The notes under the pieces were generated by a model that had not been told where the DNA came from, did not search any database, and saw only the letters and a list, made by a program, of their open reading frames with translations. Below, in pieces: positions 37,148-37,542 of a DNA stretch of 64,000 bases. The DNA is from Shigella phage sb3. The stretch is from sequence record PQ666541, one strand, 5' to 3'. Made by a program: the position numbers and the translations under genes. Numbering within the stretch: position 1 is the first letter of the stretch; each line of letters begins with the position of its first letter.

Positions 37148-37542
37148 TATAAATTCTCTTTTAAATGAAAATGCAGGACTTATTGGCATTGCCTGCGCAA
37201 GCCCTCAAGGGGTACTTAGGTTTTGAGTATTTACCGACAGGATAACCATAAACCCGTCAACATACCTTATAGCTCTTATCTGTTGCACACCGTTAGCTTA
37301 AAGGTTCCGGGTTCGATTTCTCGAGGATAAGATATATACTGATGGATATATAGGCCTTGAGGCGTACTCCCGATTAGCCATCACCTCGGGGTAGCATGCA
37401 CTTGCCGCTATAAAATAACATTCAAGAGGTACACCGTAAAACTGCCGGGGTCTTAAAACTATAATGATTCGCAAATCATTAATCAGACAGTTCGACGGCT
37501 CCTCGTTTTAACTTCACACTAAGGCAGTGACTCTCCAATAAA

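Follow-up and report, generated by a model that had tools for sequence, protein, structure and literature searches.

A conserved, covarying RNA element, very probably of a family not yet described, in the spacer between rIII and 30.9 of T4-like phages

In the 64,000-nucleotide (nt) stretch of Shigella phage sb3 that we analyzed (sequence record PQ666541; referred to as the window), four genes are encoded on the minus strand in the order gp31 (37939-38274), rIII, which encodes a lysis inhibition accessory protein (37543-37791), a homologue of gene 30.9 (36971-37147), and then 30.8, and the gap between rIII, its upstream neighbour, and 30.9, the downstream neighbour of the RNA modules that it contains, is the subject of this work. 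The window comes from a Tequatrovirus, i.e., a T4-like phage, with the 1 kb around the gap being 99.2% identical to Shigella phage pSs-1 and matching 966 phage records. As judged from sequence comparison, the gap consists of a mosaic of conserved RNA structures that run in the transcription sense of rIII and 30.9. Its main module, a self-contained structured RNA at 37265-37415 on the minus strand that we refer to as ELEM, is very probably a functional structured RNA of a family not yet described.

The 30.9 product, a small basic protein of 58 amino acids (aa; PHROG 1427), is 100% identical to T4 gp30.9, and no Pfam family matched it. In T4 and in six other genera gp30.9 begins MAKQAK, which places the start codon in the window at ATG 37147, with the sequence AAGAG as its Shine-Dalgarno sequence. 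The first-pass annotation of this DNA put the left boundary of the gap at 37189, which is the start of an upstream-extended, 72-codon open reading frame (ORF) and not that of gp30.9; this ORF most likely over-extends 30.9 at its 5′ end, and with the start at ATG 37147 the real spacer would be 37148-37542, i.e., 395 bp. The same annotation described 37190-37542 as a stretch poor in ORFs, and this is what we observe: it ranks fourth among the stretches of the window uncovered by ORFs of at least 60 aa with any start codon, the larger ones corresponding to a gene running off the window end and to a broken alt gene, and the gap ranks first when ORFs are defined by an ATG start and at least 40 aa. 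That no ORF here exceeds about 27 codons holds for ATG starts but not for TTG starts, where there is a 58-codon ORF at 37298-37474 on the minus strand, plus a 35-codon one; neither is conserved, and nearly every member of the family described below has stops in all six frames. The T4 counterpart consists of 30.9, a 244-bp gap and rIII, with none of the additional 30.x ORFs that the first-pass annotation attributed to T4 before rIII. GenBank record FN868251 (phage LZ9), which spans the same 398-bp spacer, leaves it unannotated.

The covariance model of ELEM was built from a MAFFT alignment of 19 distinct sequences, and in a cmsearch of the window it scores 169.8 bits at a single site, with a core at 37410-37270 (141 nt, minus strand) that becomes 37415-37265 with the extended closing stem. 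RNAalifold predicted 43 pairs from the MAFFT alignment, 19 of them with compensatory changes. For covariation statistics we used 28 distinct sequences aligned to the covariance model (alignment A6, 1200 cells), in which 30 of the 43 nested pairs change on both sides. Standard pairs fill 99.0% of the cells; sliding the 3′ partners by 1-3 columns lowers this share to 25-42% and the covariation score from 0.42 to 0.03-0.06, and none of 500 shuffles reached the observed values. The alignment contains 41-61 G·U cells and no A·C cells, and the folded strand is therefore the gene-sense (minus) strand. Mean pairwise nucleotide identity is higher in ELEM (83.6%) than in rIII (71.8%) or 30.9 (72.3%), most differences among ELEM copies are compensatory, and 45 of 164 alignment columns are invariant, 27 of these being unpaired. 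This combination of a conserved, covarying fold with invariant junction nucleotides is what would be expected of a riboswitch aptamer. The proposal of a structured noncoding RNA (ncRNA), for which covariance-model searches and RNA folding had been suggested as checks, is thus strongly supported by seven covarying helices, a kissing loop and conservation above that of the flanking genes, and the inverted repeats seen in the first pass are real, in that they are helices of conserved RNA structures.

The seven helices are arranged around a four-way junction and a three-way junction and are joined by a 6-bp kissing interaction between two hairpin loops; all coordinates that follow are on the minus strand. 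The closing stem P1 pairs UAGC (37410-37407) with GCUA (37273-37270), and all four pairs covary, with the versions UAGC/GCUA, AAAC/GUUU, AUAC/GUAU, ACAC/GUGU, UUAG/CUAA and GUAG/CUAC; in this phage P1 is longer, with UUUUAUAGC (37415-37407) pairing with GCUAUAAGG (37273-37265). P1 leads into a perfect four-way junction, where P1, P2, P4 and P5 join without linkers. The P2-P3 arm (37353-37406) consists of P2 (GGC, 37406-37404, with GCC, 37355-37353), the joining segment J2/3 (AAGnGCAU, 37403-37396), which is invariant in the 28 sequences, P3 (GCUACCCCGA, 37395-37386, with UCGGGAGUACGC, 37373-37362), which has conserved bulges and in which 8 of 10 pairs change on both sides, and the loop L3 (GGUGAUGGCU, 37385-37376). 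The P4 hairpin (37333-37352) pairs UAUAUAU (37352-37346) with GUAUAUA (37339-37333), with both-side changes in 4 of 7 pairs, and is capped by the loop L4 (CCAUCA, 37345-37340). The P5 domain (37274-37332) contains P5 (UCUUAUC, 37332-37326, with GAUAAGA, 37280-37274; 5 of 7 pairs covary), the P6 hairpin (UCGA-GAAA-UCGA, 37324-37313; 4 of 4 pairs covary, and the loop is variable and often GNRA), P7 (ACCCG, 37312-37308, with CGGUGU, 37292-37287, around the 15-nt loop GAACCUUUAAGCUAA; 2 of 5 pairs covary) and J7/5 (GCAACA, 37286-37281), with P5, P6 and P7 forming the three-way junction. The near-invariant helices P2 and P7 are confirmed by pair changes in outlier sequences: a C-G pair of P2 becomes U-A in Yersinia phage fHe-Yen9-01, and in P7 a C-G pair becomes U-A in the Kp_GWPR59 type and a G-C pair becomes A-U in fHe-Yen9-01.

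The kissing helix pairs UGAUGG of L3 (37378-37383) with CCAUCA of L4 (37345-37340). Every member forms it with 6-7 Watson-Crick pairs, although the sequence exists in six versions (CGAUGG/CCAUCG, UGAUGG/CCAUCA, CUAUGG/CCAUAG, CAAUGA/UCAUUG, UUGUAUU/AAUACAA and UGCAUU/AAUGCA), and the mean run of pairs is 6.1 for L3 and L4 of the same sequence versus 3.5 for loops paired across sequences. Because of this contact, the P2-P3 arm and P4 must lie side by side. A 3-bp apical helix (P3b) proposed by RNAalifold is weak, and the kissing helix explains the sequence better. About 27 unpaired nucleotides are invariant, lying in AAGnGCAU, in GAnCC and GCUAA, both within the P7 loop, and in GCAAC; further pseudoknots among these segments and J3/2 give no covariation signal either way, the positions concerned being invariant. 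Within the P7 loop, the UUUAAG linker was considered as a pairing partner and rejected, as a mini-hairpin replaces it in Escherichia phage EcS1, and a complementarity between GAGGUGAU in L3 and the 3′ end of 16S rRNA was dismissed for want of conservation.

ELEM is unannotated in every record inspected, or mis-annotated as small “hypothetical proteins”. These are proteins of 38-58 aa, found in Roth17 (locus L003, 1504-1629), as COW86c_228 (locus L006, 1195-1329) and as JC221_170, and we regard them as artefacts because nearly all members have stops in all six frames. Such automatic annotations (38-45 aa, for example in Roth17 and as COW86c_228), together with the 58-codon TTG ORF in the window, are what could be said for the view that one or more lost 30.x genes left frameshifted remains in the gap. 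Alignment with relatives, which had been named as the test that could expose such a decayed gene, found no intact ORF in any relative at this interval, nor is there one in T4; no frame is consistently open among the 28 variants, substitutions pair across helices instead of falling at third codon positions, and ELEM is more conserved than the real genes on either side. We reject a decayed gene, which we consider extremely improbable.

Our searches for a known identity were likewise negative. At the gathering threshold Rfam 15 has no match in the 64-kb window, and at E ≤ 10 none lies over ELEM in five divergent members (the window, JC221, Kp_GWPR59, COW86c and PS2). The T-loop-like sequence GGTTCGATT, noted in the first pass and reminiscent of a tRNA, is a plus-strand sequence antisense to the junction of P6 and P7 in ELEM, the polarity of which is fixed; ARAGORN finds 0 tRNA or tmRNA genes in the window, and a tRNA, a tmRNA or a tRNA-like RNA is rejected. 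Homology to the T4 RNAs rnaC and rnaD was rejected by an unfiltered cmsearch of the T4 tRNA/rnaC/rnaD region, where the best score is 8.1 bits and lies off those genes. A type III toxin-antitoxin antitoxin RNA (ToxI-like), which would have tandem direct repeats of about 36-45 nt beside a toxin gene, was also rejected, with ELEM being single copy, without internal tandem repeat and without an adjacent toxin gene. Full-text literature searches on the locus, the core sequence and structured RNAs of T4-like phages found no description of ELEM. We conclude that ELEM is a real and apparently undescribed RNA class.

The ELEM block matches 411 phage records from several genera, in phages of Escherichia, Shigella, Klebsiella, Enterobacter, Citrobacter, Yersinia, Salmonella, Serratia, Edwardsiella, Erwinia, Kosakonia and Raoultella. 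Divergent copies are present in Serratia phage PS2, Erwinia phage COW86c, Escherichia phage EcS1 and Yersinia phage fHe-Yen9-01, and in the Pseudotevenvirus-type phages JC221, CYPEBC003 and Kp_GWPR59. A minority of Tequatrovirus records contain the element, which is common among those of Klebsiella and Enterobacter phages; in IMG/VR it is present at 19 of 47 rIII loci. Scans for exact patterns in IMG/VR, in metagenomes and in 185,579 genomes, one for each prokaryotic species, yielded T4-like phage contigs only, plus chance matches in GC-rich Rubrivivax coding sequence; with a looser 16-mer pattern, 35 new loci came up in IMG/VR, only 3 of them real. No similarity to ELEM that would point to a host origin was found in 5,426 E. 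coli genomes.

Within Tequatrovirus the element comes and goes. Its covariance model has no match in the T4 rIII-30.9 spacer, and an alignment of the spacers of T4, Klebsiella phage Roth17 and Citrobacter phage CF1 showed that T4 shares both ends and lacks a central block of ~150 nt, a block that is nearly unchanged in other genera. ELEM is absent from T4 and T2, and the insertion is precise, lying between two modules that T4 has. We observe three states of the Tequatrovirus site, i.e., empty (T4), occupied by ELEM, or occupied by an unrelated hairpin cassette of ~60 nt. This long-stem cassette (locus L048, 2870-2940; also L054, L059 and L063) sits exactly at the ELEM site of other Tequatroviruses; it starts with the same UAUUUUAUA, and its loop, AAGGUUAUCUGUC, resembles the loop of module C (see below). 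From these alignments, ELEM is an optional cassette that occupies two different genomic contexts.

The first context is that of the Tevenvirinae, where the order is always rIII, ELEM, 30.9, in one orientation. ELEM starts 0 to about 135 nt past the rIII stop, P1 is followed in some genera by module C, in others by module D or other hairpins, and 60-170 nt of other modules separate ELEM from the 30.9 start. In the second, the Pseudotevenvirus type, ELEM follows uvsY.-2 in 300-700 nt without a credible ORF, and is itself followed by a bidirectional terminator and a convergent gene, with no gene downstream. In Yersinia phage JC221 (locus L008, about 900-1600) about 700 nt after uvsY.-2 are without a credible ORF and contain a divergent ELEM together with modules resembling modules A and D, suggesting that the modules move jointly as a non-coding island.

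These contexts bear directly on whether ELEM could be a cis-regulatory leader, riboswitch-like or protein-responsive, in the 5′ untranslated region (UTR) of 30.9, where it would alter read-through, RNA decay or translation. It lies between rIII and 30.9 in sense orientation in every Tevenvirinae member, a strong terminator closes the transcription unit right after 30.9, the 30.9 Shine-Dalgarno sequence appears by eye to lie inside a small hairpin, and the complexity of the fold and its invariant junction nucleotides are typical of aptamers. As in the purine, lysine and cobalamin riboswitches, P1 leads into a multi-helix junction and two hairpins are held parallel by a loop-loop helix, and the invariant junction nucleotides could form a pocket, as in riboswitch aptamers. 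Unlike riboswitches, however, ELEM has no Rfam match, no constant position in a 5′ UTR and no conserved expression platform linked to P1; what follows P1 depends on the genus, the start codon is 60-170 nt away, and the order of the modules is shuffled. Moreover, the element is dispensable for the downstream gene in close relatives, with T4, T2 and many others retaining 30.9 and the same proximal leader without ELEM, and in the Pseudotevenvirus type it precedes only non-coding sequence and the terminator that faces the convergent gene. A leader tuned to 30.9 is, on balance, unlikely.

We favour the explanation that the gap is a mosaic of RNA structures in which ELEM is an accessory ncRNA domain with a conserved partner, to which we assign a probability of roughly 0.6. 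In this explanation ELEM would be co-transcribed with the upstream gene, or in Tequatrovirus possibly transcribed from a weak early promoter of its own, it would fold autonomously, and its invariant junction and loop nucleotides would bind the conserved partner, which could be a small ligand or a protein of the host or the phage; ELEM would thus act as an accessory domain and not as a leader for 30.9. Autonomy is supported by the two contexts, the variable module order, the variable distance from the rIII stop and the genus-specific sequence after P1. ELEM almost certainly has a specific molecular partner, because a seven-helix fold, a kissing clamp and ~27 invariant unpaired nucleotides are kept across genera that are ~28% apart in the flanking genes. 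The more specific mode, in which ELEM works as an autonomous partner-binding ncRNA, is proposed tentatively, by analogy with other RNAs of complex fold, and we prefer it to the leader, ribozyme and DNA-level rivals.

Several points weigh against this explanation. The single-sequence folding energy of ELEM is unremarkable (z = -0.62), in a calculation that ignores the kissing helix. Phylogenetic relatedness of the 28 sequences and the fitting of alignment A6 to the model somewhat inflate the pair counts; the MAFFT-based result and the slid controls argue against this inflation as the cause of the covariation. The expression of ELEM and its ends are deduced from gene orientation and the G·U asymmetry only, and the proposed partner-binding mode draws on analogy with other complex-folded RNAs. 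Finally, the position of ELEM upstream of 30.9 in all Tevenvirinae members leaves room for a cis-regulatory role.

The same architecture raises the possibility of catalysis, with ELEM representing a new class of ribozyme that cleaves or otherwise processes itself and would thereby split the polycistronic transcript downstream of rIII or uvsY.-2. Phage genomes commonly contain small ribozymes, and complex junctions, a loop-loop clamp, many invariant unpaired nucleotides and an intergenic, sense-oriented position in two unrelated contexts are all compatible with one. Like the hairpin ribozyme, ELEM has a perfect four-way junction that sets adjacent arms side by side, and it is intergenic in phage genomes; unlike the hairpin ribozyme, its arms meet by a Watson-Crick kissing helix and not by internal-loop docking, and the sequences are unrelated. 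No Rfam ribozyme model matches at E ≤ 10, the 141 nt of ELEM exceed the size of most small self-cleavers, the P1 boundary, where cleavage would be expected, has no conserved nucleotide, and cleavage itself would be a prediction beyond the reach of sequence data. We therefore regard a self-processing ribozyme as quite improbable. The broader proposal, that ELEM is a new catalytic or small-molecule-binding RNA class carried as an accessory cassette of T4-like phages, also seems unlikely to us; it could take the form of such a ribozyme, or of a “sponge” or aptamer for a host metabolite or an immune second messenger. If true, a sponge or aptamer acting independently of its neighbour genes would be the RNA counterpart of the protein anti-defence sponges.

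Among known RNAs, ELEM most invites comparison with orphan ncRNAs such as OLE, GOLLD, ROOL, raiA and HEARO-type RNAs. Like these, it is defined only by covariation, combines multi-helix junctions with pseudoknot or loop-loop contacts and keeps many unpaired nucleotides invariant; phages carry some of these ncRNAs, and their function, like that of ELEM, is not deducible from gene context. ELEM matches none of them in sequence or structure in Rfam 15; it is also much smaller than GOLLD, ROOL and OLE, and it is restricted to T4-like phages of Enterobacterales. The T4 RNAs rnaC and rnaD (species 1 and 2) are, like ELEM, encoded by phages of the same virus family and are stable RNAs of 119-139 nt, but they are at a different locus and are processed from a tRNA precursor, and T4 lacks ELEM.

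ELEM would add a new class to the short list of orphan RNAs with complex folds. No lytic phages have been studied more than T4 and its relatives, which also form the backbone of many therapy cocktails against E. coli, Shigella and Klebsiella. The presence of ELEM in close relatives of T4 and its absence from T4 itself offer a natural gain/loss system for finding its function, while the conserved pseudoknot and hairpins in the rIII-30.9 spacer of T4 provide a handle on an unexplained part of the T4 map. A covariance model of ELEM would also keep gene callers from inventing ORFs at this locus.

The remaining modules of the spacer are all on the minus strand. Module C (37219-37258) is a probable H-type pseudoknot, as indicated by covariation in both stems and by a loop that pairs 3′ of its stem. 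Stem 1 is GACGGG/CCUGUC, stem 2 pairs the loop GGUU with a downstream AACC, and the linker, GUAAAUAnnCAAAAC, is conserved. We found three versions of stem 1 among 16 sequences (GACG../..GUC, GUCG../..GAC and GUGG/CCAC) and five of stem 2 (GGUU/AACC, UUGGUAGU/ACUACUAA, UUGUGAG/CUCACAA, AGGUU/AACCU and UGGU/ACCA), with a mean of 5.75 for pairing within a sequence versus 4.4 for the cross-sequence control, so that the support is moderate and weaker than that for ELEM. T4 (locus L002, about 1634-1660) and phages without ELEM have module C too, with the linker GUUAAAUAUCCAAAAC, and no description of this pseudoknot was found.

Module D (37198-37215) is a hairpin of the form GUA-CCC-loop-GGG-CUUG that is present in all genera, including T4, and is unique in the window. 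In COW86c and EcS1 it precedes ELEM, elsewhere it follows ELEM, and in PS2 it has CCUC/GAGG instead of CCC(C)/GGG. An 18-codon ORF, MFPLRACAGNANKSCIFI, runs from module D to just before the 30.9 Shine-Dalgarno sequence in T4 (locus L002, about 1542-1610) and in pSs-1 (locus L001). A conserved upstream ORF through module D is improbable and was rejected: the start is ATG in T4 and pSs-1 but AAG in the window, there is a stop in Roth17, and the frame is interrupted in Klebsiella phages. Between module D and 30.9 lies hairpin E (37173-37196; GCAGG and CCUGC separated by 14 nt), after which come an A/U-rich stretch with AAGAG and the 30.9 start codon, ATG (37147-37145); other genera have a longer GGGAGC...GCUCCC hairpin at this site. 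In the stretch 37145-37189, the 5′ extension of the 30.9 ORF overlaps hairpin E. At the other end of the spacer, module A (37514-37530; UCAC-UGCCUUAGU-GUGA) is a hairpin with a conserved 9-nt loop and a covarying stem, which is CAC/GUG, CGC/GCG or UGC/GCA (T4, JC221, L059, Roth17, PEi20). Module A is conserved across genera, and its position relative to ELEM varies.

Between module A and ELEM, hairpin T (37455-37482) has an A/U-rich stem of 8 bp and a UGCG loop of the UNCG type and is followed by UAGUUUU; in L063 its stem is changed on both sides and the loop is UACG. It is plausible that this is a weak intrinsic terminator after rIII, although the terminator scan did not call it (fewer than 3 G-C pairs). 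The adjoining segment (37412-37451) contains a P7-like hairpin and early-promoter-like hexamers. The hairpin, ACCCCG and CGGUGU around 9 nt (37451-37431), is upstream of ELEM and shares its stem sequence with P7. T4 carries it too, and the hairpin may derive from the 3′ half of ELEM, as a remnant or by partial duplication. The hexamers, UUUACG (37440-37435) and, after 17 nt, UAUUUU (37417-37412), match by eye 10 of 12 positions of the consensus TTTACW-N17-TAYWAT of T4-type promoter-early stem-loop (PeSL) elements (PMC4122927) and 8 of 12 of the sigma-70 consensus. The -10-like box lies within the inserted cassette, and T4 lacks it. An independent promoter across genera was rejected, as the weak early-type match is in Tequatrovirus only and the late TATAAATA box is absent by eye.

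PeSLs are mobile regulatory cassettes of T4-type phages (Arbiol et al. 2010, PMC2839356; Comeau et al. 2014, PMC4122927), and the flank of ELEM, with hairpin T and TTTACG-N17-TATTTT, resembles such a cassette, which we treat as a lead and not as a finding. The first-pass suggestion of a promoter cluster survives as a side feature at most: a terminator-like hairpin followed by weak PeSL-like hexamers is there, but a sigma-70 scan called no promoter in the spacer, these hexamers included. In its wider form, this alternative assigns the gap a DNA-level or punctuation role, as a promoter/terminator cluster of the PeSL recombination-cassette type, an origin or a protein-binding site. The likeness to PeSL motifs (PMC2839356; PMC4122927) speaks for it, as do the three alleles of the site and the shuffled module order, which fit recombinational cassette exchange; like a PeSL site, this one gains, loses and swaps cassettes between close relatives. 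Such exchange may account for the movement of the cassette but not for ELEM itself. PeSLs are short promoter-terminator motifs repeated genome-wide, whereas ELEM is a 141-nt RNA with seven covarying helices, ELEM and module D are each single copy in the window, and the module C linker has no other good match there. The covarying helices, the loop-loop helix and the presence of G·U but never A·C pairs point to a single-stranded RNA of one polarity, and a purely DNA-level role is very unlikely.

Downstream of 30.9, the terminator scan identified a strong intrinsic terminator (36937-36967, minus strand; GAGGACUCC-UUCG-GGAGUCCUU, then a U run). It accounts for the sub-threshold Rfam matches to Atu_C8 (E = 3.7e-4) and Phe_leader, which are terminator look-alikes only. 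Elsewhere in the window, the homologue of alt (ADP-ribosyltransferase; 30241-32298, minus strand) aligns with residues 1-682 of T4 Alt in one frame with 83% identity and contains three in-frame stops, after residues 300, about 374 and about 432. Positions 30800-31450 are only about 81% identical to phages that reach 99% at rIII. Possible explanations for the alt homologue are a pseudogene in decay, a divergent segment acquired by recombination and a sequence artefact.

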